DNA from: Xuanwuvirus P884B11
Length of the DNA stretch: 37,100 bases
Sequence record: NC_049391.1
Strand: one strand, 5' to 3'
How positions within the stretch are numbered: the stretch's first letter is position 1; each line of letters opens with the position of its first letter. Position numbers and translations under genes: made by a program. Shown here piece after piece: positions 6,113 to 27,071 of this stretch. Under the pieces are notes generated by a model. That model was not told where the DNA came from. It saw nothing but the letters and a program-made list of their open reading frames with translations, and ran no database searches.

Positions 6113-6214
6113 CGACTGACCCCGTCAGCGGGCGGCGTGCGCGGTGTTCCGGTTTGACTCCGTGACCGTTTACACCGCGCACCCACCGCCCGATTTTTTT
6201 CAGGAGTGAACCCC

Positions 6215-6909: not shown

Positions 6910-6911
6910 CA

Positions 6912-9839: not shown

Positions 9840-10186
9840 CAACCCGCTACACAGGAATGAATCCGGACGGGACGGGAAACCTGAACGATACGGAGCACCT
9901 GAAACAGTCAGTCAGGGACATCCTGACCACCCCGCTGGCAAGCCGGGTTATGCGACGGGAATATGGCAGCCTTGTGCCTGATTTGATTGACGAACCCATG
10001 AATAACACCACGCGTCTGCAATGCATGAGTGCTGCCGTGATTGCGCTGACACGATGGGAACCCCGCATTGCCCTGGACGCCATCGACGTTGTCTGGAAAG
10101 CGGGAGGCCGCGCCGGGGTGACGCTGTCGGGCACTGTCATGCAGACCATGCAGAATGTTGAATTAACCATCACGCTGAGGGAGTAA
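9836..10186 (+). CDS. W: Baseplate wedge protein, P2 gpW-like (gp25-like)
   Basis: 116 aa, overlapping start with the V stop; size and position as P2 W. Confidence 0.8.
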   Translation: MTTRYTGMNPDGTGNLNDTEHLKQSVRDILTTPLASRVMRREYGSLVPDLIDEPMNNTTRLQCMSAAVIALTRWEPRIALDAIDVVWKAGGRAGVTLSGTVMQTMQNVELTITLRE

Positions 10187-10189
10187 ATC

Positions 10190-11086: not shown

Positions 11087-11609
11087 TTCACTGTTACCGC
11101 CATCAGCCAGCAATTTCATGCGTTGTGCCGAAGCTGTCGGAACGCGCATTACAGACATCCCGGTAGACCTCAACACGCTGTGGTCGCCGGACACCTGCCC
11201 GGTGCACCTGCTGCCTTATCTCGCCTGGGCATTTTCCGTTGACCGCTGGGATCGCAACTGGCCGGAAGAGACAAAACGACAGGTGATTCGTGATGCATGG
11301 CTGATACACCGACACAAGGGAACCATCAGCGCACTGCGCCGGGCCATTGAGCCGCTGGGATACCTCATTCGTGTGTCTGAGTGGTGGGAGTTCGGCGGAG
11401 AACCGGGAACATTTACCGTTGAAGTGGGCACGCTGGACAGTGGCGTGACGGAGGAAATGTATCTGGAAATGGAGCGGTTGATTGCTGATGCCCGCCCGGT
11501 CAGCCGCGACATGACAGGGCTGAATATCATTCAGGAGATCCCTGGAGATATTTTCGCGGCGGCAGCAACTTACGACGGTGAAGTCATTACCATTTATCCG
11601 GACGATTAA
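11079..11609 (+). CDS. I: Baseplate/tail protein, P2 gpI-like
   Basis: About 176 aa from MSNSLLPP (track start 11046 is upstream and overlaps J); precedes tail fibre H. Confidence 0.8.
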   Translation: MSNSLLPPSASNFMRCAEAVGTRITDIPVDLNTLWSPDTCPVHLLPYLAWAFSVDRWDRNWPEETKRQVIRDAWLIHRHKGTISALRRAIEPLGYLIRVSEWWEFGGEPGTFTVEVGTLDSGVTEEMYLEMERLIADARPVSRDMTGLNIIQEIPGDIFAAAATYDGEVITIYPDD

Positions 11610-11611
11610 GC

Positions 11612-13762
11612 ATGAGTACCACAACACGAAAATTTAAAACCGTTATCACCGATACGGGTGCAAAAAAATTAGCGCAGGCAGCCGCGCCAGATGGTAAGCC
11701 TGTCCGCCTGACTCATATGGCCGTGGGCGACGGTGGCGGTACATTGCCCACACCTGACAGTAAGCAGACCCGTCTGGTGCATGAGGTGTGGCGACACGCT
11801 GTTAATCGCGTCATCCTGGACGCAACACATCAGAACCGCATTATTGCAGAGCTGGTTATTCCTCCAGAAACGGGCGGATTCTGGATCCGGGAAATTGGTG
11901 TATTTGATGAGCACGGCGATTTAATCGCGGTGGGCAATACTGCCGAAAGTTACAAGCCAGCCGTTGCCGAAGGGTCCGGTCGTGCACAAACATTTCGCAC
12001 CATTCTGACCGTATCCAGCACTGCCACCGTGGCGCTTACCGTGGATAACACCATGGTGATGGCCACAGTGGATTACGTGGATGACAAACTGAAAGAGCAT
12101 GAACAGTCACGACGTCACCCGGACGCCTCGCTGACCGCAAAAGGCTTTGTTCAACTCAGTAGCGCCACTAACAGCGTGTCTGAAACGCAGGCTGCAACGC
12201 CGAAAGCGGTTAAGGCCGCGTATGATCTTGCTAACGGTAAATATACTGCGCAGGATGCCAGCACGACGCGAAAAGGCCTTGTCCAGCTCAGTAGCGCCAC
12301 CAACAGCACGTCTGAAACGCAGGCTGCAACGCCGAAAGCAGTAAAGGCCGCGTATGATCTTGCTAACGCAAAATATACCGCTCAGGACGCCACGACAGCA
12401 CAAAAAGGGATTGTCCAGCTCAGTAGTGCCACCAACAGCACGTCTGAAACATTGGCCGCGACATCGAAAGCGGTTAAGGCGGTAATGGATGAAACAAATA
12501 AGAAAGCCCCATTAAACAGCCCGGCGCTGACCGGAACACCAACAACACCAACTGCGCGACAGGGAACGAATAATACCCAAATCGCAAGCACGGCTTTCGT
12601 TATGGCTGCGATTGCCGCCCTTGTAGATTCGTCACCTGATGCACTGAACACGCTGAACGAGCTGGCTGCGGCGTTGGGCAACGACCCGAATTTTGCGACC
12701 ACCATGACTAACGCGCTTGCGGGTAAGCAACCGAAAGATGCCACCCTGACGGCGCTGGCCGGGCTTGCTACTGCGGCAGACAGGTTTCCGTATTTTACGG
12801 GGAATGATGTCGCCAGCCTGGCAACTCTGACAAAAGTCGGGCGGGATATTCTTGCGAAATCGACCGTTGCCGCCGTTATCGAATACCTCGGTTTACAGGA
12901 AACGGTAAACAGGGCTGGTAACGCCGTGCAAAAAAATGGCGATACCTTGTCCGGTGGGCTTACTTTTGAAAATGACTCAATCCTTGCCTGGATTCGAAAT
13001 ACTGACTGGGCGAAGATTGGATTTAAAAATGATGCTGATGGTGACACTGATTCATACATGTGGTTTGAAACAGGCGACAACGGCAATGAATATTTCAAAT
13101 GGAGAAGCCGCCAGAGCACCACAACAAAAGACCTGATGACGCTGAAATGGGATGCACTAAATATTCTGGTAAATGCCGTCATTAATGGCAGTCTTGGAGT
13201 TGGTACGACGAATGCGTTAGGTGGTAGCTCTATTGTTCTTGGTGATAATGACACCGGATTCAAACAGAATGGTGATGGTATTCTGGATGTTTACGCTAAT
13301 AGTCAGCGAGTATTCCGCTTTCAGAATGGAGTTGCTATTGCTTTTAAAAACATTCAGGCAGGTGATAGTAAAAAGTTCTCGCTATCCAGCTCCAACACCT
13401 CCACAAAGAATGCAACGTTTAATTTATGGGGTGCTTCAACCCGTCCAGTAGTTGCAGAGTTAGGCGATGAGGCAGGATGGCATTTCTATAGCCAGCGAAA
13501 TACAGATAACTCGGTAATATTTTCTGTTAACGGTCAGATACAGCCCAGCAACTGGGGGAATTTTGATTCACGCTATGTAAAAGATGTTCGCCTGGGTACG
13601 CGAGTTGTTCAATTGATGGCGCGTGGTGGTCGTTATGAAAAAGCCGGACACGCAATTACCGGATTAAGAATCATTGGTGAAGTAGATGGCGATGATGAAG
13701 CCATCTTCAGACCAATACAAAAATACATCAATGGCACATGGTATAACGTCGCACAGGTGTAA
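11612..13762 (+). CDS. H: Tail fibre protein H (constant N-terminal part fused to currently expressed variable C-terminal tip)
   Basis: 716 aa; the crossover site lies in frame at codons about 422-430 (IEYLGLQE); C-terminus ends INGTWYNVAQV, mirrored by the inverted silent tip (INGTWYNAGSI). Confidence 0.85.
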   Translation: MSTTTRKFKTVITDTGAKKLAQAAAPDGKPVRLTHMAVGDGGGTLPTPDSKQTRLVHEVWRHAVNRVILDATHQNRIIAELVIPPETGGFWIREIGVFDEHGDLIAVGNTAESYKPAVAEGSGRAQTFRTILTVSSTATVALTVDNTMVMATVDYVDDKLKEHEQSRRHPDASLTAKGFVQLSSATNSVSETQAATPKAVKAAYDLANGKYTAQDASTTRKGLVQLSSATNSTSETQAATPKAVKAAYDLANAKYTAQDATTAQKGIVQLSSATNSTSETLAATSKAVKAVMDETNKKAPLNSPALTGTPTTPTARQGTNNTQIASTAFVMAAIAALVDSSPDALNTLNELAAALGNDPNFATTMTNALAGKQPKDATLTALAGLATAADRFPYFTGNDVASLATLTKVGRDILAKSTVAAVIEYLGLQETVNRAGNAVQKNGDTLSGGLTFENDSILAWIRNTDWAKIGFKNDADGDTDSYMWFETGDNGNEYFKWRSRQSTTTKDLMTLKWDALNILVNAVINGSLGVGTTNALGGSSIVLGDNDTGFKQNGDGILDVYANSQRVFRFQNGVAIAFKNIQAGDSKKFSLSSSNTSTKNATFNLWGASTRPVVAELGDEAGWHFYSQRNTDNSVIFSVNGQIQPSNWGNFDSRYVKDVRLGTRVVQLMARGGRYEKAGHAITGLRIIGEVDGDDEAIFRPIQKYINGTWYNVAQV
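12133..12490 (+). repeat. Three tandem ~126-bp (42-aa) repeats inside tail fibre gene H
   Basis: Near-identical units encoding G(F/L/I)VQLSSATNS(V/T)SET(Q/L)AAT(P/S)KAVKA...; visible as DNA repeats. Boundaries approximate. Confidence 0.8.
12876..12901. other. Invertase crossover site (gix/hix/cix-like), left, inside H
   Basis: TTATCGAATACC-TC-GGTTTACAGGAA; inverted repeat of the right site with complementary central dinucleotides (TC vs GA); matches the Gin/Hin-family site pattern of 12-bp half-sites around AAACC..GGTTT. Confidence 0.8.
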
Positions 13763-13765
13763 ATT

Positions 13766-14293
13766 ATGCAGCATTTAAAAAATATTAAGTCCGGAAATCC
13801 AAAAACAAAAGAACAATATCAGCTAACAAAGAATTTTGATGTTATCTGGTTATGGTCCGAAGACGGTAAAAACTGGTATGAGGAAGTAAATAACTTTCAG
13901 GACGACACCATAAAGATTGTATACGACGAAAATAATATTATTGTTGCCATAACCAAAGATGCCTCAACGCTTAATCCCGAAGGCTTTAGTGTCGTTGAGA
14001 TTCCAGATATAACAGCCAATCGTCGTGCCGATGATTCAGGGAAGTGGATGTTTAAGGACGGAACTGTGGTTAAGCGGATTTATACAGCAGACGAACAGCA
14101 ACAACAGGCCGAATCACAAAAGGTCGCGTTGCTTTCTGAAGCTGAAAGCGTTATTCAGCCACTGGAACGCGCTGTCAGGCTGAATATGGCGACGGATGAG
14201 GAACGCACACGACTGGAGTCATGGGAACGCTACAGCGTTCTGGTCAGCCGTGTGGATACAGCAAATCCCGAATGGCCACAAAAGCCTGAGTAA
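13766..14293 (+). CDS. G: Tail fibre assembly protein (chaperone), P2 gpG-like
   Basis: 175 aa directly after H; N-terminus [22 protein letters not shown] is shared with the inverted paralogue at 14322-14855. Confidence 0.85.
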
Positions 14294-14321
14294 AAATTAA
14301 GGCCCAATATCGAGCCTTCTC

Positions 14322-14855
14322 TCATTCTGGTTGTTCGGGAAACGTTACTGGCAGGCTGGAGGTGTCTGTAGATTCGACTTTCTGCGCATAGAGCATCCAC
14401 TCGGTTAATTTTTGTTTATTCTCGTCGGAAATGATGCCCAGCCGTAGCTGTGAGTCCCATAGCTGGGTTTTATCCCTGACAAGTTGCAACAGGCTTTGCT
14501 TTTCATTTTCCGCTTGTTGCCTCTGCTCTTCCTCGGTATAAGTTCGCTTTATCACTACGCCATCTTTGAACAACCATTTCCCCGAAATATCAGCCCGGCG
14601 ATTTGCTGTAATATCAGGTAATTCAACGACGCTTGCGCCTTCCGGATTAATTGCTGAAACATCCTTTTCAATACAAATAATAACGCCGTTATGGTCATAG
14701 ACCATTTTCAAAGTGTCTGGCTGGAAATTCTTTTGTTCCTCATACCAGTTTTTTCCATCATCTGAATAAAGCCATTTGATGTTAAATTGCTTTGTTAGCT
14801 GGTATTGCTCTTTTGTTTTAGGGTTGCCAGCAGTAATGTTTTTTAAGTGCATCAT
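14322..14855 (-). CDS. Alternative tail fibre assembly protein (G-prime) in the invertible segment
   Basis: 177 aa on the minus strand; N-terminal 40 aa nearly identical to G, C-terminus diverged; follows the alternative fibre tip. Confidence 0.8.
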   Translation of the reverse strand: MMHLKNITAGNPKTKEQYQLTKQFNIKWLYSDDGKNWYEEQKNFQPDTLKMVYDHNGVIICIEKDVSAINPEGASVVELPDITANRRADISGKWLFKDGVVIKRTYTEEEQRQQAENEKQSLLQLVRDKTQLWDSQLRLGIISDENKQKLTEWMLYAQKVESTDTSSLPVTFPEQPE

Positions 14856-14857
14856 CG

Positions 14858-15553
14858 TTAAATACTCCCCGCGTTATACCACGTCCCATTAATGCAATAC
14901 TGAATTGGCCTTGCCTGTGTTGTATCAATTAATTCATCACGGTTTCCGTTAACTGAACCCGTAACGACATAACCTGACCTGTCAGACCAGCCGGGACCAT
15001 TCCATGTCTGAACAGATGACAGACCGCCAAGGCGAATACCTGTAATAAACCTTGAGTTACATTCTGCCTGCGTATATGCACCAACATCTCCCGCTGAAGG
15101 TTTTCGTGTCGTGGTATAGAAATCTGACCAACCTAATTCAAACCCATAACCATCACGAGCCGACCTGTAGGAAATGCCACCATTTTTATAATTCACACGG
15201 AATTGTACGGCAGGACAGCTACCAGCATTTATATTAAAGTGAAGAATTAATGCAGATGCACCACTAATCAGGGCGTTATATGCACCACTATCCCAATTCC
15301 ATCCAACGGATGTATCACCATTAACAGTATTACCTGTTTGTCGGAGTGCAAATGCATTGACATTTTTGGCACTAATTGAAATATCGCTAGAACCATCAAA
15401 ACCAACTCCAGCAATTTTTCGTGCTGTTTTCAGCTTTGTTGCAGTAGCGGCATTGCCGGACAGTTCCCCAGAAAGGCCACCGCTGAATGTTTGTCGATTG
15501 GTCCAGGTATTCGCTGTACTGAGTAACGGTATTTTCTCCCCGCTTGTGCCGAG
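14858..15553 (-). CDS. Alternative tail fibre C-terminal segment (promoterless; becomes fused to H after inversion)
   Basis: Minus-strand frame is open from the right crossover site down to the stop at 14858, in the phase that continues H across the site; no start codon or RBS of its own at the 5-prime end. Confidence 0.75.
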   Translation of the reverse strand, partial: LGTSGEKIPLLSTANTWTNRQTFSGGLSGELSGNAATATKLKTARKIAGVGFDGSSDISISAKNVNAFALRQTGNTVNGDTSVGWNWDSGAYNALISGASALILHFNINAGSCPAVQFRVNYKNGGISYRSARDGYGFELGWSDFYTTTRKPSAGDVGAYTQAECNSRFITGIRLGGLSSVQTWNGPGWSDRSGYVVTGSVNGNRDELIDTTQARPIQYCINGTWYNAGSI

Positions 15554-15579
15554 TTCTCGTAAACCGAGGTTTTAAATAA
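15554..15579. other. Invertase crossover site (gix-like), right, adjacent to invertase gene
   Basis: TTCTCGTAAACC-GA-GGTTTTAAATAA, close to the Gin/Hin-family site consensus as I recall it; inverted relative to the site at 12876-12901. Confidence 0.8.
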
Positions 15580-15632
15580 TGGCCGTTTCTGGCCTGCATG
15601 GCATGATTTGCGCTTTTGGACGGGAGATTCAG

Positions 15633-16233
15633 TGTGCTGATTGGCTATGTAAGGGTATCAACAAATGACCAGAATACAGACCTGCAACGAAACGCTCTTG
15701 TTTGTGCAGGATGTGAACAAATATTTGAAGATAAATTAAGCGGGACAAAGACAGACCGACCGGGATTAAAACGCGCTTTAAAGCGCCTTCAAAAAGGTGA
15801 CACGCTGGTTGTCTGGAAACTGGATCGCCTCGGGCGAAGCATGAAACATCTGATTTCTCTCGTCGGGGAACTACGGGAGCGAGGGATTAATTTTCGCAGT
15901 CTGACCGACAGCATAGACACATCTTCTCCAATGGGGCGTTTTTTCTTCCACGTGATGGGTGCCCTAGCTGAAATGGAACGTGAATTAATTGTTGAACGTA
16001 CACTGGCCGGGCTGGCGGCAGCGCGCGCAAGGGGACGCACAGGCGGACGTCGACCGAAGCTGACAAAAGAACAGCATGAGCAAATAGCAAGGCTAATCAA
16101 AAACGGGCACGACAGAAAACAACTGGCAATAATTTACGGCATTGGCACATCGACGATTTATCGTTATCACCCTGTAGGCGATATACAGACTGAAGAAACA
16201 ACCGGGCAGACTCAGGAAAATGAAAACCGCTAA
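15633..16233 (+). CDS. Serine DNA invertase, Gin/Pin/Cin/Hin family
   Basis: GTG start with GGGAGA RBS (track offers TTG 15616); LIGYVRVSTNDQNTDLQRNAL catalytic N-terminus and C-terminal HTH, very close to Mu Gin / e14 Pin as I recall them. Confidence 0.9.
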
Positions 16234-16252
16234 TCTGACCATTAGCGGTTTT
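16223..16252. terminator. Bidirectional intrinsic terminator between invertase and U (convergent)
   Basis: Perfect 12-bp stem AAAACCGCTAAT / ATTAGCGGTTTT with 6-nt loop and T-run; overlaps the invertase stop codon. Confidence 0.6.
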
Positions 16253-16261
16253 TGTGTTAAA

Positions 16262-16756
16262 TCAGAACAGCCCTTTAACTGAACTGGCCGCGCTGTTAAG
16301 AGATGATGTCACCTTATCTTTGAAGCCGGACAGCATATCACTGAACGATGAGGATTGCAGGCGCTCCCGCAAATCCTCATCACAGCGTTCAAGAGTCAGT
16401 GAAAATTCTATCTTTTTCGCCTTACCGTAGCGATCAAACTCGGAGCGGGTCGTATTCGTTTCAGTCAGGACATACATGCCGTAAATCTGCCCGACGCCAT
16501 CAATCAAAGGCCAGGGTCGTCCTGTATACGCCTGCGTGGTCAGCAGCGACAGCGACACTTCGCCACCTGTAATTTCAGGATAAAGCACACCAGAAAGAAC
16601 GATGCGATCATCACCTGCACCGATATACTGCCAGCTTGCTGAACGGTTAACGCGTTCATTTTTCACATGCCGCCAGCTTTTGTTTTGCTGTAACTGCTGA
16701 TGCGGCAGCGTGCGCAGCTCAAAAACAAACATGCCGTAGATCATCATCATGGCCAT
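16262..16756 (-). CDS. U: Tail protein, P2 gpU-like
   Basis: 164 aa; follows the tape measure in transcription direction, as U follows T in P2. Confidence 0.8.
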   Translation of the reverse strand: MAMMMIYGMFVFELRTLPHQQLQQNKSWRHVKNERVNRSASWQYIGAGDDRIVLSGVLYPEITGGEVSLSLLTTQAYTGRPWPLIDGVGQIYGMYVLTETNTTRSEFDRYGKAKKIEFSLTLERCDEDLRERLQSSSFSDMLSGFKDKVTSSLNSAASSVKGLF

Positions 16757-16762
16757 GACTCC

Positions 16763-19606
16763 TCAATCTTTATCGTAAAAACTGCCACGCCCGGCACGGG
16801 CGCGCCGTTCCATTTCTGCCCTGACCATTTCACCGACCAGTTTCGCCAGTTCGCGGGGATTCTGCGTAACAACGTTATGCAGATGAACATGAATTTCACC
16901 ACCAAATCCGGAGGCAACAGGCTCCCGGTTACGGGAAGTTACAGGAACTGATGCCACTGGAGATCGTATAGCCTCCGCCACCGGGCGGGAGCTGGCCGCA
17001 ACAACAGGGACCAGCGCCGGAGGCAGCGGAGCCGGGACCACGGGTGTGATATTAATTGCGGGGGCAGGCTTACTGACCTGCGCAATCTTCCGCTCCTGCC
17101 ACTCCCCACGAACAGCAAGTGCTCGGGGCAGGTTTTTAAAGACAATATCGCCGGGGCCAATGCGTTTTTTCGTCTCCTCAACCAGCTTACCTGTGTTATC
17201 AGCAATTTTGCTGAGTCTGCGCAGCGTACCGGTATTGCTGTCTGTGAGCGGTTTATTGTCTTTGGGGTTATCACCTCCGGTGCCATTGCCATTTTCCACA
17301 GGCTTCGGCGGATTGATTTTCGCCAGGTCCCCCTGAAGCAAGGCAACCTTGTCCTGAAGAATGGCCGCACGCTGTGCGTCTTCGATTTTCTTGCGCGCCC
17401 TTTCCGCTTCATCCGGAAGCACACCAAGCTTTTCAAGTATCCACGCCAGCGTATCCAGCAACATTTTTGCAGGTGTCAGAACAAGTTGTAACGCACCGCC
17501 AAGAACGTTACCGAATATCTCGCCAGCACTGGTACATTTATCCAGAGTTTCCTTGCTGGACTCCATCGGTGACAGCAGCGATTTAAACCAGTTAAACACC
17601 TGGCTGATCCCACTCCCGATTGCGTCAAAAACAGGACCAAACCGTTCAAAGGTTTCGCGCAACGGGGTCAGCCTTTCCATAATCCCGCTGAACACCCCGG
17701 CAAAAAATGCCCTGATGGGATCCCAGTATTTCCAGATAAGAACGGCAGCTCCGGCAAGCGCAGCCACGATAAGACCAACCGGACTGAACAACGCCCCGAT
17801 AGCGCCTCCCAGTAAAGAAACGGAACCCGTCACCATTCCCCATAGTGCTGGCAGAACCCTGACAGCATTCATTGATCCGGTCAGGAGGGAAAAACCAAGA
17901 CGCAGTTTTGCCAGCGGGCCAGCAAGCACACCAATAGCCAGCGACAACGAGCCAACCGTTGCAGTCATTGCCAGCAGTGCACCGCCTGCAATCAGTAGCT
18001 GGCGCGTCAGTGCGGGATGGGCCTGCGCCAGCGCCGTCACCTTTGATACCACACGCGTGAGCCACTGCGTGACAGAACGCAGCGGACCGTCAATCAGATC
18101 TGCAATGCGGATGCGCAACCCTTCCCATGCACTGCTGAGTGATTTCAGATCGCCGTCAAGGTTGTTGGCCATAACCTTTGCCGTGCGTTCAGCCTCACCG
18201 CGCGCGCCTTCAAGTTCTTTTCTCAGTTTGGGTAAGGAGCCGTCACCTGCCGCATCAACGAGGGCCATAAATGATGTGAAAGCCTCTTCTCCGGCAATGT
18301 CCTTAAAGAACGATACCCGGTCAACTTCCCCGTATTTGCGGGTAGCTTTATAAAGGTCAGCCAGCACATCCTCCATCGGGCGCATTTTGCCCCCGGCATC
18401 CGAGACAGACACGCCAAGCTCTTTCAGCGCCTCTGCTGCCGCCTTTGGCGGTGATGCCAGACGAGCCAGGCTGGCACGCATTGCCGTACCAGCATCACTC
18501 CCCCTGATACCCATATTCGCCAGTACGCCCGCCATCGCTGCGGCCTGCTCCAGCGATATTCCCAGCTTACCCGCCACCGGACCTGCATATTTCATGGTTT
18601 CACCCAGTGCGCGAAGGTCAGTGTTGGTACGGGTAAACGCTGCGGTGAGTGTGTCGCCGACCCGGTCCATCTGGTCAGCAGAAAGACCGAACTGCGTCAG
18701 AATATTTGAGCCAATATCCGCCGTCTCACCGAGGTCCATACCGCCAGCCGTTGCCATGCTCAGTACGCCAGGGAGCGCAGCCTGAATGGCCTGTGGTGTA
18801 AAGCCAGCCATTGCAAGAAATGCCTGTCCACTGGCGGCATCGCCTGCGGTGAACTGCGTTTCAGAGCCAAGTTTTAACGCCTGCTCACGCAGCGCCTTAA
18901 ACTGCGGGCTGTTCTGGTCGATTCGCGTCAGTGCCTGAACGCGGGACATATCTTTGCCGAACCCGATCGCAGGCTGCAAAAAACGCCCGGCAGCATAGCC
19001 GCCCGCCGCTGCCGCACCAATTGCCAGCGCACCACCTGTTTTCAGTTTTCCCGCTGTTTCCTGCGCGCGCGAATACCGCTCACGCGCCCGTGTTACACGC
19101 GCAAGCGCCTGCCGTTCGCGTTCAAGCTGGTTGTTGTACTGTTCGGTGCGTCTGATGGCCTGCTGGATGGTGTTATCGCTGCCTGTCAGGGAAATGCCGT
19201 GGCGTTTCAGCTCTCCGCCAAGCTCCCGCATTTTCTGAATTTCCCGTGTGCGCGATTCATTCAGGCGTTCAAGCCGGGTGCTTAACTGCTGCATCAGCTT
19301 TTGTTGTTTTTCGCTGAGCACTGTACCCGTGCGTTGTAACTGATTAAGGGCGTTAAGCTGGCGTCGTGCTTTCACGATGCCCGCATCCGCTTTACTGACA
19401 GCGTCACGGGCGCGCTCAAATGATCGCGCCTGACGCTCGAGATTTTTGATCGCCCCCTGCGTTCGCTGGATGGAGTCACCAAACTGCCCCATCAGGCGGC
19501 GGGCGTTTTCGGCAGGCCGGGTCAGCCTGTCAACGGCGCTGAAAGCGACCCGGATATCAAGAGTCTTCATTGTCTGCATTCCCGCTACGAAGTGCCGCCC
19601 GCTCAC
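16763..19606 (-). CDS. T: Tail tape measure protein, P2 gpT-like
   Basis: 947 aa, Ala/Gly-rich with coiled-coil N-terminus and hydrophobic central segments; follows the E/E-prime chaperone pair. Start ambiguous (GTG 19606 or ATG 19579/19570). Confidence 0.85.
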   Translation of the reverse strand: MSGRHFVAGMQTMKTLDIRVAFSAVDRLTRPAENARRLMGQFGDSIQRTQGAIKNLERQARSFERARDAVSKADAGIVKARRQLNALNQLQRTGTVLSEKQQKLMQQLSTRLERLNESRTREIQKMRELGGELKRHGISLTGSDNTIQQAIRRTEQYNNQLERERQALARVTRARERYSRAQETAGKLKTGGALAIGAAAAGGYAAGRFLQPAIGFGKDMSRVQALTRIDQNSPQFKALREQALKLGSETQFTAGDAASGQAFLAMAGFTPQAIQAALPGVLSMATAGGMDLGETADIGSNILTQFGLSADQMDRVGDTLTAAFTRTNTDLRALGETMKYAGPVAGKLGISLEQAAAMAGVLANMGIRGSDAGTAMRASLARLASPPKAAAEALKELGVSVSDAGGKMRPMEDVLADLYKATRKYGEVDRVSFFKDIAGEEAFTSFMALVDAAGDGSLPKLRKELEGARGEAERTAKVMANNLDGDLKSLSSAWEGLRIRIADLIDGPLRSVTQWLTRVVSKVTALAQAHPALTRQLLIAGGALLAMTATVGSLSLAIGVLAGPLAKLRLGFSLLTGSMNAVRVLPALWGMVTGSVSLLGGAIGALFSPVGLIVAALAGAAVLIWKYWDPIRAFFAGVFSGIMERLTPLRETFERFGPVFDAIGSGISQVFNWFKSLLSPMESSKETLDKCTSAGEIFGNVLGGALQLVLTPAKMLLDTLAWILEKLGVLPDEAERARKKIEDAQRAAILQDKVALLQGDLAKINPPKPVENGNGTGGDNPKDNKPLTDSNTGTLRRLSKIADNTGKLVEETKKRIGPGDIVFKNLPRALAVRGEWQERKIAQVSKPAPAINITPVVPAPLPPALVPVVAASSRPVAEAIRSPVASVPVTSRNREPVASGFGGEIHVHLHNVVTQNPRELAKLVGEMVRAEMERRARAGRGSFYDKD

Positions 19607-19793
19607 GCCAGCTAACCACTTCGCCGGGCGTCATCATGAAGATTTCGGCGGGCGACCAGTTAAAAATGGCGGCAATATCCGCCACCAGATCTTCGATGTG
19701 CTCAAAGCACACCAGGGTGATTACGCTGCCGTCTCCTGCACGCTCTTCGCGCCAGAGTCTGGCTCGCTCATAAAATTTACAGCCACAGCGCAC
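19557..19793 (-). CDS. E-prime extension (made as an E+E-prime fusion by programmed -1 frameshift)
   Basis: Open -1 frame overlapping the 3-prime end of E and running into the T start; a run of seven A on the coding strand (plus-strand T7 at 19819-19825) sits just 5-prime of the overlap. Confidence 0.6.
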   Translation of the reverse strand: MRCGCKFYERARLWREERAGDGSVITLVCFEHIEDLVADIAAIFNWSPAEIFMMTPGEVVSWRERAALRSGNADNEDS

Positions 19794-20095
19794 AACTGAA
19801 TAAAATCGCGTGACGACATTTTTTTAATCATCACTTCATCCAGTCGTGGCGAGGTCACGCGAGGCAACAGCGTAAACATGGTATCCGCTTTCAGATTCAG
19901 CACATCAGACAGCGACAGACCACGCAGGGATCCAGCCTGCTCAATAGCCCCGGTGATCTCCACATACGTGATTTTTTCGCCACCACGCTCAATTGGTCGG
20001 GTCAGTTTTACGCCACGTTCGACAGCCATATCCTCACCTGCCGTCACATCATCCGCCACGGTGTTATTCCGGGTTTCAGTATCGATGTCTTTCAT
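19721..20095 (-). CDS. E: Tail assembly chaperone, P2 gpE-like
   Basis: 124 aa with AAGGAG RBS 7 nt upstream; GSLRGLSLSDV region aligns with P2 E (GTLRGVSLAAV). Confidence 0.8.
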   Translation of the reverse strand: MKDIDTETRNNTVADDVTAGEDMAVERGVKLTRPIERGGEKITYVEITGAIEQAGSLRGLSLSDVLNLKADTMFTLLPRVTSPRLDEVMIKKMSSRDFIQLCAVAVNFMSEPDSGAKSVQETAA

Positions 20096-20150
20096 CAGTT
20101 GTCTCCTTTTCAGTCAGAGGCGACGCACTGCGCCGCCTGCATATTACTTA

Positions 20151-20663
20151 TCAGCCAAGCCCAAGCGCGGAACGGATACGGTCAGGCACAATGTCCTTGC
20201 CGTCCTTCCGGTAGATGTGGTTCAACAGGTCGATTTCCCACAGCGGGCGATCGTTAACGCTCAGCTTGTAGTAGGTGTTTTTGACAGCGTAAGTGTGTGA
20301 TGTGGCTTCGCCCTGTTTGGCTTCCCCCATATCAATTTCCGTCACACGCCCGCGCATCTCGATTTCATACAGATCGCTTTCTGCATCGGTGTAGTATTCA
20401 CCCGCAAAACGCAGCAGCGTGCCGTCAATCGTGCCGCCATATTTAAGGAACAGCGCACGAACAGCTCCCCCCATGACAAAACTCGCATCAAGCGCGGAGT
20501 CGTCCAGACCGAGATCAATACTTACCGCCCCCATCATGCCACCACCACGATAGCTGTCGGTTTTGCGCGTCAGTTTGGGCGGCGTGACGGATGTCACTTT
20601 GCCCACTTCGTTTTCACCATCCACAAACAACGTAAAAAAGCGAAGATGTTTTGGTACAGCCAT
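20151..20663 (-). CDS. FII: Tail tube protein, P2 gpFII-like
   Basis: 170 aa; PKLTRK..YRGGGM..DLGLDD matches P2 FII motifs. Confidence 0.88.
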   Translation of the reverse strand: MAVPKHLRFFTLFVDGENEVGKVTSVTPPKLTRKTDSYRGGGMMGAVSIDLGLDDSALDASFVMGGAVRALFLKYGGTIDGTLLRFAGEYYTDAESDLYEIEMRGRVTEIDMGEAKQGEATSHTYAVKNTYYKLSVNDRPLWEIDLLNHIYRKDGKDIVPDRIRSALGLG

Positions 20664-21847
20664 CAGGCACCTCCCAGCACCGCAAATGCGGGACCAAAGA
20701 ATTCATCAGTAAACGTCTGGTAAAGCTCCATGTCTTCCAGTGGCGGAACGGGCGTATATTTGTAGCGAATACGCACACGTCCCTGACGTAAATTCGTGGT
20801 GCCGTTATCCACCACGTCATACCAGCACTCCGCACCAATCAGTTTCCCGGCAGTAACCAGCGAATCCAGTTTTGCCCTGATGGCGCTGATAACATCCTTC
20901 ACGTTCGCAGGTGTCAGTGGACTGTCGATGGTTTCAAACTGCGCTTCCGCAATTGAATCAGCCAGCACCTGTGCGGTTCGGGTATACACCTCAAAGATGT
21001 AGGCGTTCGTTTCCGGTGTGCGGTTGCCCCAGAAGCGGAACCCGTTGCGACGAATAATGGTCGTGATTTCTTTGTTGTTGAGGCTGTTGGCATCACTGTC
21101 TTCGGCCTGCAACGACCAGAACACATGCCTGGACATTCCCAGCACATTTTTAACCGGAACGTTGGACAGCGATTTGTGCCAGCCCTGCTCATGGTCAATG
21201 TACGCACGAAGGCCGCACGCATAAGCAGGCGCGGGGAACGTTTCGTTTTTGCCACTTTTCGGGTTGTAGGCGATGAAGTCAGGCCATAAGAGCATCACCT
21301 CACGTTCGTTGAATTTCTGGCGGTAGGTAATCGCCTCAGCCATCGTGTTACAACCATGACATGTGGCATACACAAACGCGCGCAGTTTACCCGCAATCAC
21401 GCACAAGGATTTTGTCACCGCCTCCGTGTCCAGCTCCGGCGCGGCCAGAATACGCGGACGGTATCCGATGCTTTCATCCTGCTCTGCAACAAGCAGCGCA
21501 TACATCCCCGTATAGCTGCCGTCAGATTCAGAACCACCGATAACCAGTTGATCCTGCGTTTTTCCGTCTTCTTCTTTGTGTTCAGCCACGCGAACGACGA
21601 TCACCTTTGTGCTCACCTGGTCTGCGATGGCCTTAAGCGCACGATAAAGCGTCCCCGTTGTTCCGCATTTTCCCAGCACGTCATTGACGCGGGTCAGCAA
21701 TGTGGGCTTGTTCAGCGGGAACAGCTCCGCGTCCGCATCATCCGCCGTTACCACGATACCGATAACGCTGGAATCAACATCGTTAATCGCTGTTACCAGG
21801 TCGGTATTTTCCGTAACACGGGCACCATGAAAACGAGTTTCACTCAT
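20663..21847 (-). CDS. FI: Contractile tail sheath protein, P2 gpFI-like
   Basis: 394 aa; motifs DADAELFPLNKP, QGWHKSLSNV, RRNGFRFWGNRT, YKYTPVPPLE match P2 FI. Confidence 0.9.
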   Translation of the reverse strand: MSETRFHGARVTENTDLVTAINDVDSSVIGIVVTADDADAELFPLNKPTLLTRVNDVLGKCGTTGTLYRALKAIADQVSTKVIVVRVAEHKEEDGKTQDQLVIGGSESDGSYTGMYALLVAEQDESIGYRPRILAAPELDTEAVTKSLCVIAGKLRAFVYATCHGCNTMAEAITYRQKFNEREVMLLWPDFIAYNPKSGKNETFPAPAYACGLRAYIDHEQGWHKSLSNVPVKNVLGMSRHVFWSLQAEDSDANSLNNKEITTIIRRNGFRFWGNRTPETNAYIFEVYTRTAQVLADSIAEAQFETIDSPLTPANVKDVISAIRAKLDSLVTAGKLIGAECWYDVVDNGTTNLRQGRVRIRYKYTPVPPLEDMELYQTFTDEFFGPAFAVLGGA

Positions 21848-22004
21848 AGCTTCAGCCCCTTGTATCCGTTAAATGATTCGGCAACAATCATCACCCACCA
21901 CGCGCGTAATCTCACCCCTGCGCCGTTCTCCCGCCACGGCGACAACAAAAAGCAGTAACCCCCTCCGCACGCACATGCGACCATGCCGCACAGGGAGGGA
22001 ACAG

Positions 22005-23114
22005 ATGACCGACACCACCATGCAATTGCTCAGTCAGGGCACAGACCCCGTGAAAATGCCGGATTTTGATATTCTCGCGGAGGGTAAAACGCTGTCAGGC
22101 GTGGCAGAGCGCCTGATGAGCCTGTCACTGACCGACAACCGGGGATTTGAGGCGGACCAGCTCACCATCACGCTGGATGATGCAGATGGTCAGTTGCAGC
22201 TACCGCCACGGGGCGCGCGCCTGACGGTTCTCATTGGCTGGAAAGGAGAACCGCTGACAGAAAAAGGCACTTACATTGTTGATGAAATCGCTCACGAAGG
22301 ACCGCCGGACAGGCTGACTGTTTCAGCCAGAAGCGCAGATTTTCGGGATGAATTTAACGTTAAACGTGAGGTGTCCTGGCATGATGTGACCGTTGAGCGT
22401 GTGGTATCCGCCATCGCTCATCGGTACGGTCTGAAACCGCAAATCAGCGAAATGCTGATGGATATCGAAATCGACCACGCCGACCAGACCGAAGAAAGCG
22501 ACATGTCCTTTCTTACGCGCATGGCGGAAATGCTGGGCGCAATCACCACGGTAAAAAGCGGTAATCTGTTATTCATTATGCCAGGCGGTGGCGTGAACGC
22601 ACAGGGCCAACCGTTGCCATCGTTCGCCATCACGCGCAGCAGTGGCGATCGCCATCAGTTCCGCATTGCTGACCGCGAAGCGTATACGGGTGTACGCGCC
22701 TACTGGCTTGATCTTAATTACGGGAAAAAGAAAAAAGTCAGCGTGAAACGCCGCAAACCGCCAAAACCCAAAAAGGAGAAAAGCAGCAGCCGTGAAGGTG
22801 ATTATATGGAAGGCGCGGAAGGAAATGTGTTTGTGTTACGCAAGACTTATCAGAACGAGCAGGCAGCAAGACGCGCAGCGGCGGCAAAGTGGCAGCAGCT
22901 ACAACGCGGAGCCGCATCATTCTCCATCACACTGGCTCGTGGACGCGCAGAACTCTACCCCGAAATGCATGGCACGGTAACAGGATTTAAAAGCGAGATT
23001 GATAATCAGGACTGGATTATTGCGAAAGCCGATCACACCATTGATAACAGTGGCTTTACCACGCAGCTTGAGCTTGAAGCAAAAATTCCGGAATGGATAG
23101 CAGAAACAGAGTGA
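22005..23114 (+). CDS. D: Tail/late gene D protein, P2 gpD-like
   Basis: Start at MTDTTMQ with GGGAGGG RBS (track ORF starts at 21873, overlapping FI); about 369 aa. Confidence 0.8.
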   Translation: MTDTTMQLLSQGTDPVKMPDFDILAEGKTLSGVAERLMSLSLTDNRGFEADQLTITLDDADGQLQLPPRGARLTVLIGWKGEPLTEKGTYIVDEIAHEGPPDRLTVSARSADFRDEFNVKREVSWHDVTVERVVSAIAHRYGLKPQISEMLMDIEIDHADQTEESDMSFLTRMAEMLGAITTVKSGNLLFIMPGGGVNAQGQPLPSFAITRSSGDRHQFRIADREAYTGVRAYWLDLNYGKKKKVSVKRRKPPKPKKEKSSSREGDYMEGAEGNVFVLRKTYQNEQAARRAAAAKWQQLQRGAASFSITLARGRAELYPEMHGTVTGFKSEIDNQDWIIAKADHTIDNSGFTTQLELEAKIPEWIAETE

Positions 23115-23156
23115 GCAACTTAGAATAGCAGCAGCACCACGTTAAGGGAGGTCGCT

Positions 23157-23417
23157 ATGTTCCGTTGTCCGCTTTGTGGCGCATCTGCCCGTATCCGCAC
23201 CAGTCGTTCGGAAAATGATTCAAACACCGTACGGAAAAAATATTACCAGTGTAACAACCTGGAATGCGGCATAAGTTTCTCAACACTGGAAGCTTTCCAT
23301 AAATTCACATCGAAACACGCCCCCGGCGTTCACTCTTCAGAAGGTATCCCGTGGCATGAGTTGCCAGCTTCACACAGGGGAAACAATCAGATGAGTTTGC
23401 CTTTATCTCAGAATTAA
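23157..23417 (+). CDS. ogr: Late gene transcriptional activator Ogr (zinc-finger), P2 Ogr/186 B-like
   Basis: MFRCPLCG...RTSR...YYQCNNLECGISF: the Cys4 zinc-finger spacing and N-terminus of P2 Ogr. Confidence 0.88.
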   Translation: MFRCPLCGASARIRTSRSENDSNTVRKKYYQCNNLECGISFSTLEAFHKFTSKHAPGVHSSEGIPWHELPASHRGNNQMSLPLSQN

Positions 23418-23607
23418 CAGGCAGAATTGCCGGAGTAACAAAAAAGCGATAGATTACGCGCGGGTGCCTTTCGGCTGATGGTCGGAGGGAATACCCGAAG
23501 GCCAGATGTGGAAAGGCCCCGGAAAACATTTCTGTTTAACCGAGGCCCTAACCGTCTAACCTTAGCAAGTGATAGGTTAGCGCCTCCCTGAAAAAGGAGC
23601 AAGCGCT

Positions 23608-23748
23608 ATGTCGCAAAAATCGCTTACGGCCATCACGTTCTGCGTGACGGCAATCCTCATCATCTGGATGCTGCACGGTTCGCTGTGCGAAATACGGATG
23701 AGCTTCTGGGGAGCGGAGTTTGCGGCGTTCTTACAGTGTAAGCAGTAA
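23608..23748 (+). CDS. Hok/Gef-family type I toxin (small membrane peptide)
   Basis: 46-aa ORF missed by the 60-aa track; hydrophobic TM then SLCEIR...AAF core shared with Hok/Gef; GGAG RBS; upstream hairpin (CTAACCT/AGGTTAG) and strong 3-prime hairpin at 23757-23779. Confidence 0.6.
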   Translation: MSQKSLTAITFCVTAILIIWMLHGSLCEIRMSFWGAEFAAFLQCKQ

Positions 23749-23821
23749 GGAAACCGCGACGGGGGAGCAATCCCCCGTCAATCGGTTGCCAGGGTAAGGT
23801 CGATAAGGCACCCTATCTCAC

Positions 23822-23931
23822 CAATGCCGTTCAGTTAGTTAAGGAATTGAGGTTCGATAGCCCGAACCTCGCGCAGAGGCAATATGACCGAAAGCCTGAT
23901 TCCTTAATGCCCAAGATGAGTCTCTATTCAT
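23822..23931. repeat. Left ~110-bp terminal inverted repeat of the 1.49-kb element
   Basis: Near-identical to the reverse complement of 25201-25307 (a few substitutions, one 3-bp indel); contains nested sub-palindromes TTAAGGAAT...ATTCCTTAA and GAGGTTCG...CGAACCTC. Confidence 0.8.
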
Positions 23932-24157
23932 AAAAGCGCTTAACTACTCGACATTGGCGGTGTATCCCCCGCATTGTCTGAATGCCGCCTCTTACCTTTC
24001 GCGGTCAACTGACGACTTCTAGTTCTAGAACGCCTTGATTTTTTGTACTTGTACATTGAAAAATAACCATAAATTGTTAGCCTGTGCAGTAGACTCAGTG
24101 GTGGTAACTGGTCAGCATGAAGTGTAAAGTGAATAACGAAGCTCTAAAATTATAGGG

Positions 24158-24406
24158 ATGGTCATGAATAATAAGCTAAAGGTAATTGAGTTAAATAGTC
24201 TTGATCTGTTTCGTAAAGAATTACTAACTACTATAAAGCCAGAGAAAGTAGAGAAATTACTTAGATGGTATCTTCAATCATATGGCGGTGTTAATTTCAA
24301 GTTCGGTTATGACAGACCAATTTTTAGAGCGCGAAAGTGCCCAAATGAATGCGGATATAATAACATCAGTGAGATATATCCCCCTCACCAGAAAAATGTA
24401 AAATAG
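24158..24406 (+). CDS. Hypothetical protein; probable N-terminal part of a frameshift-split RES-domain protein
   Basis: 82-aa ORF ending 6 nt before the next ORF; contains PIFRARK, positioned like the conserved N-terminal Arg of RES domains. Confidence 0.5.
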   Translation: MVMNNKLKVIELNSLDLFRKELLTTIKPEKVEKLLRWYLQSYGGVNFKFGYDRPIFRARKCPNECGYNNISEIYPPHQKNVK

Positions 24407-24411
24407 GCCGA

Positions 24412-24990
24412 ATGAATGATGATGGACAAGCTATCTTCTATGGCGCTTATAGTATCGGAACAGCTTTAGCCGAAATTAATGCAAAAGAAGGGGATTATGT
24501 TCACATAGCTCACTTTAAGATGCCGGAAAATTCAGAGTCTGGAATGCGATGTTTTGCTATCGGTGAGGTCTTTAATGTGTATCACGGTGTAAATACAATT
24601 TCAATTGAAGTGTTTAATGAAATTCGCGACATCATTAGCAGAATTGGTAAGGACGACATCCGAGCTTTGCTATCATATTTGTATATGGATGCCCTTTCTG
24701 CTGAGTTGCTTAATAGTATCAATGCCCATGAGGTAAATTATATTTACTCAAGAATTTTTTGCCGTCTTCTTCTTGATAAATACCCTGATGTTGATGGTCT
24801 TATTTATCCTAGCGCTAAAATAAAAGGGGCCTCAAATATCGCTTTGCGCACAGAAACAGTTAAATTGAGAATGCATTTAGTTGCTAATCTTGTGTTTAAA
24901 GTAAATAAAATTTATCCATATGGAATAGTAGATTTCAGTATAGTAAAACAAGCCAAAGGACATACATCAGATGGGCGCATCGTTTGGTGA
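24412..24990 (+). CDS. RES-domain protein (putative NAD-targeting toxin family), C-terminal part
   Basis: 192-aa ORF; the frame is open upstream to give GR-MNDDGQAIFYGAYSIGTALAE (GRxN...Y...E pattern) and later DGLIYPSAKIKGASNIAL (PS motif), the hallmark RES residues as I recall the family. Confidence 0.55.
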   Translation: MNDDGQAIFYGAYSIGTALAEINAKEGDYVHIAHFKMPENSESGMRCFAIGEVFNVYHGVNTISIEVFNEIRDIISRIGKDDIRALLSYLYMDALSAELLNSINAHEVNYIYSRIFCRLLLDKYPDVDGLIYPSAKIKGASNIALRTETVKLRMHLVANLVFKVNKIYPYGIVDFSIVKQAKGHTSDGRIVW

Positions 24991-25200
24991 GCCAAACTTT
25001 TAGTTAGCTGATTGAAAAACCGATGCGTCAGTTTGCACTGCATGTGGTGTATGGGAAGCGCGGGCTTGTAGTGCAGGTCATTTCAGAAGAAGCTAACGAG
25101 AAAGCTTAGACATACTGTGACTACTAAACAAGCAGAAAGCCCGTGTTTATGGGGGCAATCCACACAACAGGCGATGTCGATTAGTTAATACACTTGTATG

Positions 25201-25307
25201 AATAGAGACTCATTTTTGTGCATTAAGGAATCAGGCTTTCAGTCATCTTGCCTCTGCGCGAGGTTCGGGCTATCGAACCTCAATTCCTTAACTGAACTAC
25301 ATTGCCC
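25201..25307. repeat. Right ~110-bp terminal inverted repeat of the 1.49-kb element
   Basis: Reverse complement of the left repeat at 23822-23931. Confidence 0.8.
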
Positions 25308-25502
25308 TATCTCACAGCTCTAAATGCAAAAATCCCATGAAACTGTGGGTATTTCATCACACACTGACACTGCTCTACCTTTCTATATGTATCACTCTAA
25401 ACCAGTTAATCAATTGGCACTTATCAACAACAAAAAATCTGATAAAATCAAAATGTTTTGTAACAAATTTCAGCTTGTAGTGTTCCAAAGGAGACGGATT
25501 AC

Positions 25503-25835
25503 ATGGCATTAATCAAATGTCCTGAATGCCAGAAAGAGGTCAGCGATTCAGCATTATGTTGCCCTGCTTGTGGTAAACAACTGAAAAAACTTAAGCGTTC
25601 ATTTTTTGGAAAACTCATTAAATGGGCTTTTATATTTTTTAATATTTTTATGATCTATACACTTTTAGTTGGACTAGGAGGCGCTGATGAAATAATAAAC
25701 AATACCACATCCGATGCCGAAAAAGCTGGGGCAGTTATTGGTACGGGCTTAGGTTTAATTGTCATTGGAGGCTTATGGGTTATTGGCGATATCATTATCG
25801 GAATTTTAGTATTTCTTACTAAACCAAAGGGATAA
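25503..25835 (+). CDS. Small zinc-ribbon inner-membrane protein (hypothetical)
   Basis: 110 aa; CPEC...CCPACG zinc ribbon, then two hydrophobic helices; AAGGAG RBS; AT-rich codon usage unlike the phage core. Confidence 0.6.
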   Translation: MALIKCPECQKEVSDSALCCPACGKQLKKLKRSFFGKLIKWAFIFFNIFMIYTLLVGLGGADEIINNTTSDAEKAGAVIGTGLGLIVIGGLWVIGDIIIGILVFLTKPKG

Positions 25836-25839
25836 TAAA

Positions 25840-26733
25840 ATGAAAAATATGATTTTTACTATAGGTGCATTATTTATATCAATTAGTGTACTGCCTGTTC
25901 ACGCAGCAACTGAACATAAGAATTTCAATGCAGTGCTCCAGTGCCGAGCGATAGAAAACAATAAAGACAGACTTTCTTGTTATGATAAGTCAATACAACC
26001 GACTCGAACGAAAGTTGCTGAAAAATTTGAAAGCAGGGATCAATGCCCTGATGAGAAAGATGATGACAAACGTTTATCTTGTTATGATCGTTTTTTTTCT
26101 CCAACATTTACTCCATCTGTAAACTCAAAATCTAAAACGGAAAAGCTAGTAACAACAGAGGCTCAGCAACCAAATCTTTCTGAAATATCTAAATGCCGAG
26201 CAGAAAATGATAAAGAAACCAGACTAAACTGCTACGATAAACTATTCCCACAGGATGAAGCTGTTCAATCTGAATCACAATTAGAGAAAGCCACAGATGC
26301 AGGAAAATGGCACACGTCCATTACTACATCGCCAATTGATGATTCGAAAAATGTAATTTTATCGTTAGAAAGTGATGATTATATCAGAACTCCATTTGGA
26401 GAAGCTGTTACTCCCACTCTGTTTATAGCTTGCCGAGAAAAGAAAACCGAAGTATTTCTTAGTTGGGATGTATATTTAGGCCTTGAACAAACCAGCATGC
26501 TGTATCGTCTTGATAAACAGAAAGCAGTTGAAAGAAACTGGCTAATATCTACAGATACAAAGGCTGTTTTTTATAAAGGTAATGATATTGATTTCATAAG
26601 AAAACTTGCCAACTCACATAAAATGTACACAAAAATAACCCCCTATAATGAAAGCCCTGTAAGTGCAACTTTCAATTTAAGCGGCCTGTCAAATGCACTA
26701 AAACCGCTTCAAGATGCTTGTAACTGGAAATAG
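25840..26733 (+). CDS. Secreted (periplasmic) protein with three tandem Cys-pair repeats (hypothetical)
   Basis: 297 aa; signal peptide ending VHA-A; three copies of C-x11-C-YD(K/R) (QCRAIENNKDRLSCYDK, QCPDEKDDDKRLSCYDR, KCRAENDKETRLNCYDK); starts 5 nt after the previous ORF; AT-rich. Confidence 0.6.
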   Translation: MKNMIFTIGALFISISVLPVHAATEHKNFNAVLQCRAIENNKDRLSCYDKSIQPTRTKVAEKFESRDQCPDEKDDDKRLSCYDRFFSPTFTPSVNSKSKTEKLVTTEAQQPNLSEISKCRAENDKETRLNCYDKLFPQDEAVQSESQLEKATDAGKWHTSITTSPIDDSKNVILSLESDDYIRTPFGEAVTPTLFIACREKKTEVFLSWDVYLGLEQTSMLYRLDKQKAVERNWLISTDTKAVFYKGNDIDFIRKLANSHKMYTKITPYNESPVSATFNLSGLSNALKPLQDACNWK

Positions 26734-26754
26734 TATATACCTCCCCAATATCAG

Positions 26755-26792
26755 ATGACAAAACGCCCGTGAAAACGGGCGTTTTGTCATCT
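26755..26792. terminator. Intrinsic terminator-like hairpin after the accessory cassette
   Basis: Perfect 16-bp inverted repeat GATGACAAAACGCCCG / CGGGCGTTTTGTCATC with a 6-nt loop, T-run within the 3-prime arm. Confidence 0.6.
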
Positions 26793-27071
26793 GTAACTCG
26801 AAAATGTGGTCATTGCGTGGACATACGATGATATAAATCCTTTTATATCAAAAGATTAAACCACTATTATTTTCCTCAACAAGGATTTTTAACCCTTTTT
26901 CAGTCTCTGACAATCTAAGGCTCCTTTATCAACAAACGCCCATTTGCAAACTGCTGTTTAATCTGAAAAAACATTAATAATCACACAGATAACAACATAA
27001 CCATTTAGACGGGCAATACTGAAAAATTGTTATTCAGTATCGCCCTTTAAGCCGTTTCAGGCTATATAAAA

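Follow-up and report, generated by a model that had tools for sequence, protein, structure and literature searches.

A block of tail genes running leftward among rightward late genes is the fixed and normal condition in P2-like prophages of a very common group, and is neither an assembly artefact nor a novelty. The stretch of DNA in which we analysed this block (hereafter the window, 37.1 kb) is a complete P2-like prophage of the P88/PhiSM type (Peduoviridae, genus Xuanwuvirus). Comparisons of sequence and gene order among relatives argue very strongly that the layout goes back to one ancient inversion in the ancestor of the clade, which would since have been inherited vertically and become fixed. 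The whole explanation, namely this single inversion together with divergent late promoters that are predicted to share one activator site, appears likely to us. As data, the arrangement is already known, since annotated public records of named genera, along with thousands of bacterial genomes, contain it. No explicit description of the inversion was found in the searchable library of literature, and the P88 paper contains no word matching "invert", "orientation" or "synteny".

Gene order and strands of the tail module

Gene identities and strands were established from the ORF map together with Pfam and PHROGs. The portal and terminase genes (402-3199) are oriented leftward and are followed by the rightward genes O to G (about 3354-14293). 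Next come the tail-fibre G segment, an invertible segment whose silent alternative fibre genes (14322-15196) lie on the minus strand, and a plus-strand gene for a gin-type serine DNA invertase (15616-16233; Pfam Resolvase, 1.5e-50, plus HTH_7; PHROG DNA invertase, 1e-96), which is convergent with U. The block itself, on the minus strand throughout, comprises the genes for the tail protein gpU (16262-16756; Pfam Phage_P2_GpU, 5.5e-39; 46% identity to P2 gpU), the tape measure gpT (16763-19570; Pfam PhageMin_Tail, 3.7e-58; PHROG tape measure), the tail assembly chaperone gpE (19721-20095; PHROG_103 tail protein, 1e-36, with a weak match to Pfam Phage_TAC_7), the tail tube gpFII (20151-20663; Pfam Phage_tube, 2.1e-45) and the tail sheath gpFI (20663-21847; Pfam Phage_sheath_1, Gp18_domIII_N and sheath_1C; PHROG tail sheath, 1e-124). 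For T, the start at ATG 19570 agrees with the 2808-nt coding sequence annotated in phages P88 and Shae_phiSM, while a GTG at 19606 marks the limit of the longest ORF. E contains a run of seven A residues (19819-19825), and the -1 frame stays open as far as a TGA at 19557, overlapping the ATG of T at 19570. By analogy with the annotated E+E' of P2, the E' extension read from the sequence in this frame (19557-19825, minus strand) is probably reached by a -1 frameshift at the A7 run.

Beyond FI lies a divergent spacer of 157 bp (21848-22004), which is conserved across the clade in an alignment of 24 relatives, and then, on the plus strand, the gene for the baseplate hub gpD ("late control D"; 22005-23114; PHROG_52, 4e-166; 49% identity to P2 gpD over its full length) and ogr, which encodes an Ogr/Delta-type zinc-finger late activator (23157-23417; Pfam Ogr_Delta, 1e-15; 40% identity to P2 Ogr). 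D begins at ATG 22005 behind a Shine-Dalgarno sequence of its own (GGAGGG) and is separated from U. With PADLOC, the cargo regions gave no match to known defence genes.

The P2-like tail module of Peduoviridae is complete, with FI, FII, E (plus the putative E'), T, U and D all orthologous to their P2 counterparts, E and T with 34% and 32% identity, respectively. The window shares with the P2 F operon (FI-FII-E-E'-T-U-D, transcribed from pF) the seven orthologous tail genes, their internal order, the overlap of the E/E' frames with T, and the position of a gene for an Ogr-family activator just downstream of D. The two differ in orientation: in P2, as a preliminary description of this DNA had stated and the P2 record confirms, the seven genes form one operon downstream of and co-oriented with H-G, whereas here FI to U lie on the minus strand, G and H lie on the plus strand, and D, likewise on the plus strand, forms a separate, divergent unit. 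In P2, D closes the pF operon and overlaps U by one base; here it stands apart. The P2 Z/fun locus, which is situated between G and FI, is absent from the window. Pfam and PHROGs bear out the placement, in the preliminary description, of FI to U on the minus strand (16262-21847) between a plus-strand gin and plus-strand D and ogr, and the 157 bp that it gave for the spacer is exact, with the ATG of D at 22005. Its wording that the block runs opposite to every flanking late gene holds for G, gin, D and ogr and has to be narrowed in one respect: because the silent alternative fibre genes (14322-15196) lie on the minus strand, not literally all flanking late ORFs are rightward.

Both junctions of the block in independent genomes

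The closest known systems are Escherichia phage P88 (NC_026014, Xuanwuvirus P88) and Citrobacter phage PhiSM/Shae_phiSM (OR565851), both of which show 95-98% nucleotide identity to the window over positions 13500-24000. Their gene order and strands are identical to those of the window, including gin, the inverted U-to-FI block and the divergent D-ogr pair, and they differ slightly in the content of the fibre/G segment and in the cargo genes downstream of ogr. A query of 10.5 kb around the block aligned with Shae_phiSM as one collinear piece across both junctions (98% coverage, 97.8% identity) and with E. coli phage P88 collinearly in two joined pieces (95% coverage, 95.1% identity); the high identity and collinearity of this query with P88 place the phage among the P88-like Xuanwuvirus. 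The annotations of both records assign the genes to the same strands as in the window. Separately, we observed that in the Shae_phiSM record the labels are wrong for FI, given as "late control gene D", and for D, given as "ogr". Since P88 is inducible and PhiSM is released spontaneously and forms plaques, both phages being viable (PMC5285337, PMC6456863), the layout is functional. The preliminary description had raised the question whether related P2-like phages carrying Gin have this orientation as their standard; because P88 and Shae_phiSM both carry Gin and share it, the layout is lineage-typical and not novel.

That the 5.6-kb block was misoriented during sequence assembly, the second of the readings offered earlier, has nothing to commend it other than the departure from the P2 textbook order, and it is refuted by the junctions themselves. 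In a search of 5,426 complete E. coli genomes with a 751-bp probe spanning the FI/D junction, that junction was collinear in 1,358 (~25%), and the U/gin junction was collinear in 621 complete E. coli genomes when a 601-bp probe was used. Both junctions are collinear in the independent phage records, a 100% identical copy resides in E. coli O145:NM FWSEC0002, and the same layout occurs in prophages of more than 15 other genera and in plaque-forming or inducible phages. We therefore leave an assembly artefact next to no probability.

At the U/gin end, the two convergent genes are separated by a gap of 28 bp and meet at a hairpin (16223-16252) whose 12-bp stem, AAAACCGCTAAT-6 nt-ATTAGCGGTTTT, has a folding energy of -15.7 kcal/mol (z = -3.4) and whose left arm overlaps the gin stop codon. 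Because T-runs follow on both strands, the hairpin resembles a bidirectional intrinsic terminator, in keeping with the earlier statement that U ends tail-to-tail with the invertase gene at such an element. In the remaining E. coli genomes with a match, which are without this gin, homology ends at about 16255, directly past the hairpin; the terminator is therefore a mosaic boundary and gin an optional neighbour. A hairpin after U is also found in most relatives in the clade.

The proximity of gin raises a further reading, according to which the block is a programmed invertible segment flipped by Gin or another recombinase, with the window capturing one of two states. In its favour are the adjoining invertase gene and the fact that this phage does possess a true Gin-invertible fibre segment. 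A scan of the window, however, returned only two matches to gix (12876-12901 and 15554-15579), one on either side of the tail-fibre G segment; as noted in the preliminary description, the ends of the block carry no gix-like sites, and no inverted repeats pairing the two ends were found there either. Most clade members with the inverted layout, moreover, are without any invertase gene. We conclude from both observations that the block is not a switch. The opposite orientation of the block was seen in none of 25 loci surveyed across bacterial genomes (see below) and in none of four phage records of the clade (P88, Shae_phiSM, phiT5282H and Kp4850-1), and the FI/D junction is fixed in the 1,358 E. 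coli genomes. Flipping the block would, in addition, part FI and D from their respective promoters. A programmed switch is accordingly very improbable, if by a hair less so than an artefact.

Distribution and origin of the inversion

The spread of the layout was surveyed in a collection with one genome per species, in which 57 loci encoding a relative of FI were recovered and the proteins of the window were placed by tblastn; the loci were recruited through peptide patterns of the query FI, such that intermediate lineages could have been missed. All 25 survey loci whose FI is at least 69% identical to that of the window are inverted. Their layout reads ogr-D / FI-FII-E-T-U / G-H-I-J-W-V, with FI to U opposite to all else, and their hosts belong to Salmonella, Citrobacter, Edwardsiella, Enterobacter, Kosakonia, Pantoea, Mixta, Erwinia, Izhakiella, Kluyvera, Trabulsiella, Serratia and Symbiopectobacterium. 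The canonical arrangement, U followed by D on one strand, was found in every classifiable locus with an FI of 48% identity or less (33/33). Among phages, Enterobacter phage phiT5282H (Novemvirus) and Klebsiella phage Kp4850-1 (Reipivirus) are inverted; they share with the window the inverted block and the divergent D-ogr pair, and differ in that their proteins are only 60-79% identical to those of the window. In phiT5282H, which is without an invertase, U converges directly on a fibre-assembly gene. P2, PsP3 and Fels-2 are canonical, as is Yersinia phage vB_YenM_42.18, the nearest outgroup in the phage collection (FI 50%). Phages of the Fels-2/SopE-phi type were considered as carriers of the inversion and rejected, Fels-2 and PsP3 both being canonical.

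We propose that a segment consisting of the PF promoter, FI, FII, E/E', T and U was inverted once in the ancestor of a broad clade of P2-like phages of Enterobacterales, which includes Xuanwuvirus, Novemvirus and Reipivirus. One breakpoint would have separated U from D, and the other would have fallen immediately upstream of the PF activator site. By this event, U would have come to converge on the tail-fibre/gin region at the bidirectional hairpin terminator, and D, whose P2 counterpart overlaps the end of U, would have been orphaned and would have needed a ribosome-binding site and a promoter of its own. Of the two readings put forward in the preliminary description, it is thus the ancient inversion of 5.6 kb, with its late promoters rewired, that is favoured by the clade-fixed layout, the canonical outgroups and the conserved late-promoter-type element in the spacer discussed below.

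The layout might also have come about without an inversion in situ, either through insertion of a foreign FI-U cassette in backward orientation or as the ancestral state from which the P2 order was derived. Tail modules have indeed been rearranged in other P2-like lineages, V-W lying beside FI in alphaproteobacterial loci, for example, and in Smp131 (PMC3931495). A foreign cassette would be hard to reconcile with the extent of divergence from P2, which is about equal for genes inside the block (FI 45%, FII 41% and U 46% identity) and for those outside (D 49%, V 45%, W 43% and J 54%). Over these seven, identity to P2 ranges from 41 to 54%, and from this similarity we read no sign of a foreign cassette. 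D, U and Ogr are ordinary P2 orthologues; the notion that D is a divergent and possibly foreign (mosaic) gene was rejected, given its 74-79% identity within the clade and 49% identity to P2. Against an ancestral divergent layout, Pseudomonas, Burkholderiales, Yersinia and the alphaproteobacteria all have U followed by D on one strand, and since this is true of all distant lineages sampled, the canonical order is taken to be ancestral. Taken together, these two routes to the layout are improbable, and a single inversion of the segment in the clade ancestor remains our strongly preferred account of its origin.

The FI/D spacer and the predicted late promoters

Ogr-dependent late promoters of the P2 type combine a partial dyad centred near -55 with a weak -10 and lack a -35 element, and they rely for transcription on an activator of the Ogr family and on the alpha subunit of RNA polymerase. 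A TGT-N12-ACA dyad is described for P2 late promoters in a passage of PMC3931495 (citing Christie and Calendar 1985), and in the P2 record the pO/pP and pF sites read TGT-N12-CCA. Exact TGT-N12-ACA occurs eight times in the window, versus 9.4 occurrences expected, and in neither of the late spacers (P/O and FI/D). The search of the FI/D spacer for an Ogr-type element that the preliminary description had called for thus yielded no exact match, and recovered instead the variant TGT-N12-AGA, one mismatch removed from it. This putative Ogr-type activator site (21927-21944, read on the minus strand) lies inside an extended element at 21925-21950, and corresponds to the most strongly conserved block of the spacer in the alignment of 24 clade members, which in the FI sense reads TTTTTGTTGTC-N-CAGA. 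A comparable activator-type site is present in the divergent P/O spacer (3264-3281), where it was recovered with the same patterns and position weight matrix (PWM). The extended pattern TTTGTTGT-N12-AGAAC has exactly two copies with zero mismatches, at 3262-3286 in the P/O spacer and at 21925-21949 in the FI/D spacer. As this pattern had been derived from the window itself, the search was repeated with a pattern (N6 spacer) drawn only from phiT5282H and Kp4850-1, which again matched only the P/O and FI/D sites, with 0.02 matches expected by chance. With a PWM built without the sites of the window, these two sites rank first and second in the window (23.0 and 21.7 bits), and the next match scores 15.1. 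One copy of the element occurs in each of the P/O and FI/D spacers in all three genera examined, phiT5282H and Kp4850-1 included.

The P2 pP/pO region offers a precedent for how one such site may serve two promoters. In the P2 record, one "activator binding site; pO, pP promoters" is entered at 3057-3087, and the starts of pP and pO, at 3016 (minus) and 3127 (plus), are 111 bp apart, with the centre of the dyad 55.5 bp from each. The FI/D spacer resembles that region in size (157 bp here, 173 bp in P2), in its one central dyad with predicted starts about 55.5 bp to each side, in its GC-rich cores and in its weak -10-like elements; the dyad here is TGT-N12-AGA versus TGT-N12-CCA at P2 pO/pP. 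It differs in that the architecture occurs twice in this phage, at P/O and at FI/D, the FI/D starts being predicted ones. A distance of about 55 bp between the activator dyad and the start, here again a predicted start, is likewise shared with the P2 F operon. When the P2 geometry is laid on the FI/D site (centre 21935.5), starts are predicted at about 21880 (minus) and 21991 (plus). If the centre lies at -55.5 as in P2, a -10-like hexamer GATGAT (21887-21892, minus) would fall at -12 to -7 of a presumptive PF promoter and, with the geometry mirrored across the site, GACCAT (21979-21984, plus) would do so for a presumptive PD promoter. Both are weak -10-like hexamers placed exactly at -12 to -7, with an A as second and a T as sixth base; the PF position is occupied by GATTAT in most relatives and the PD position by GATCCT or AATCAT. 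The P/O site fits the same geometry if O starts at ATG 3354, a start that aligns with residue 1 of the O proteins of relatives and with the N-terminus of P2 gpO.

These observations suggest a model in which the inversion carried pF, together with its roughly palindromic Ogr-type site, into a back-to-back position with D. The single site at 21927-21944 would then serve a leftward PF and a rightward PD, late promoters that diverge from starts about 111 bp apart, and late transcription would run from two bidirectional promoter pairs, P/O and FI/D; binding of the site by the Ogr homologue of this phage is assumed. On the basis of site geometry and conservation, we consider back-to-back PF and PD promoters on one activator site somewhat more probable than the contrary. 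That the inversion in this way created a second bidirectional late promoter of the pP/pO style, with the pF-borne site co-opted for the orphaned and essential D, we hold to be evenly balanced; no account of such a rewiring turned up in the searchable library of literature.

A promoter for D must lie in or near the spacer, because what precedes D on its own strand is a terminator followed by 5.6 kb of antisense tail genes. Such a promoter might be independent of the shared activator site, whether constitutive or otherwise recognised, and located in that conserved stretch of the spacer which contains CGCGCGCG. The D-side GC-rich block (CACGCGCGCG) is conserved across the clade and resembles the core region of the P-side promoter, and the -10-like hexamer on the D side is poor, all of which would suit an independent promoter. 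A consensus scan of the FI/D spacer, on the other hand, revealed no sigma-70 promoter; the centre of the site is equidistant from the two -10-like hexamers and matches the 111-bp pP/pO geometry of P2; and D, as a structural late protein, is needed simultaneously with FI to U. We regard an independent D promoter as unlikely, albeit well short of negligible, and favour the shared PF/PD site. The regulatory picture may nonetheless be incomplete, since the PWM detected no third site above background in the window that would be equivalent to P2 pV. S overlaps V (9258-9261), and for this reason, together with the missing pV-like site, V to G may be read from the O promoter.

For P2-like prophages at large, the gene order of P2 should not be taken as a template for all members. 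The inverted FI-U block with a divergent D is a reliable synteny marker of the P88/PhiSM-type clade, is present in ~25% of complete E. coli genomes, and should not be flagged as a misassembly. If the promoter model is correct, the whole late regulon of the clade would be controlled from two shared activator sites (P/O and FI/D) and four promoters, with no pV, and the clade would offer a natural and datable case in which an inversion rewired promoters within a classic family of model phages. Confirmation of the model would show how an essential gene severed from its operon by an inversion gained regulated expression.

Start codons and transcription signals of the late genes

Although the longest open reading frame for O begins at position 3321, alignment places the ATG at 3354 (MANEKK...) at residue 1 of the O proteins of relatives, and the N-terminus of P2 gpO also aligns with this codon. 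The downstream start is, in addition, compatible with the start of the P2-type late promoter pO predicted near 3328. At the point between S and V where P2 carries a terminator, orf30 and the late promoter pV, the window instead has an overlap of the two genes (9258-9261), and no activator element of the pV type was present anywhere near V (9100-9290). The O operon and V-G may be co-transcribed. Further along, the 3' end of D contains a sigma-70-like promoter match (GTAACA-18-GATAAT, 22977-23006) ahead of ogr, at the place corresponding to the annotated ogr promoter of P2.

A frameshift candidate in E, and tail genes in related records

The minus-strand E gene contains a run of seven A residues (A7, 19819-19825), and the -1 frame there has no stop before 19557, so that it overlaps the start of T. 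The run is likely the frameshift site for E+E'. Slippery sequences reported from P2-like phages are, by contrast, rich in T, among them the T7C given in the Smp131 paper (PMC3931495).

Two related records carry oddities of their own. A 226-kb contig assigned to 'Vagococcus sp. WN89Y' (NZ_JBQPOM010000071.1) encodes prophage tail proteins 97% identical to those of the window phage; these are of enterobacterial phage type, whereas Vagococcus is a Gram-positive genus, and the record is probably a contamination or a mislabelled assembly. In the Citrobacter phage Shae_phiSM record (OR565851), the name 'late control gene D protein' is given to the sheath gene, while D itself is labelled 'ogr'. The PhiSM virion is described as having a long, non-contractile tail (PMC6456863), which is hard to square with the sheath and tube genes in its genome.

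Cargo and early-region genes

Between ogr and the integrase lies a cargo island of low GC content (36-38%; 24000-27000), in which PADLOC returned no matches. A small ORF and a gene for a RES-domain protein in this island (24158-24990) may form a toxin-antitoxin pair; the island also encodes a zinc-ribbon protein and a VasI/TagO-like T6SS-associated protein (25503-26733). The early/right arm carries a gene for a ParM/StbA actin-like segregation protein (35087-36046; Pfam 3.7e-82), here in a P2-like prophage that integrates.

The invertible fibre segment and the boundary beside U

Gix sites at both ends, one within H (12876-12901) and the other at 15554-15579, delimit a Gin-invertible tail-fibre segment (12876-15579), whose alternative fibre-tip and assembly genes (14322-15196, minus strand) are silent. 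The segment shares 91-92% identity with the G segment of Mu/D108 and about 90-91% with the C segment of P1/P7.

Where a complete E. coli genome has the same prophage type but not the window's gin, homology to a 601-bp probe across the U/gin junction ends at about 16255 (probe position 306/307), just beyond the U-side hairpin (16223-16252). By this sequence comparison, the putative terminator marks a boundary of recombination or mosaicism; its position corresponds to that of the variable Z/fun locus in P2.
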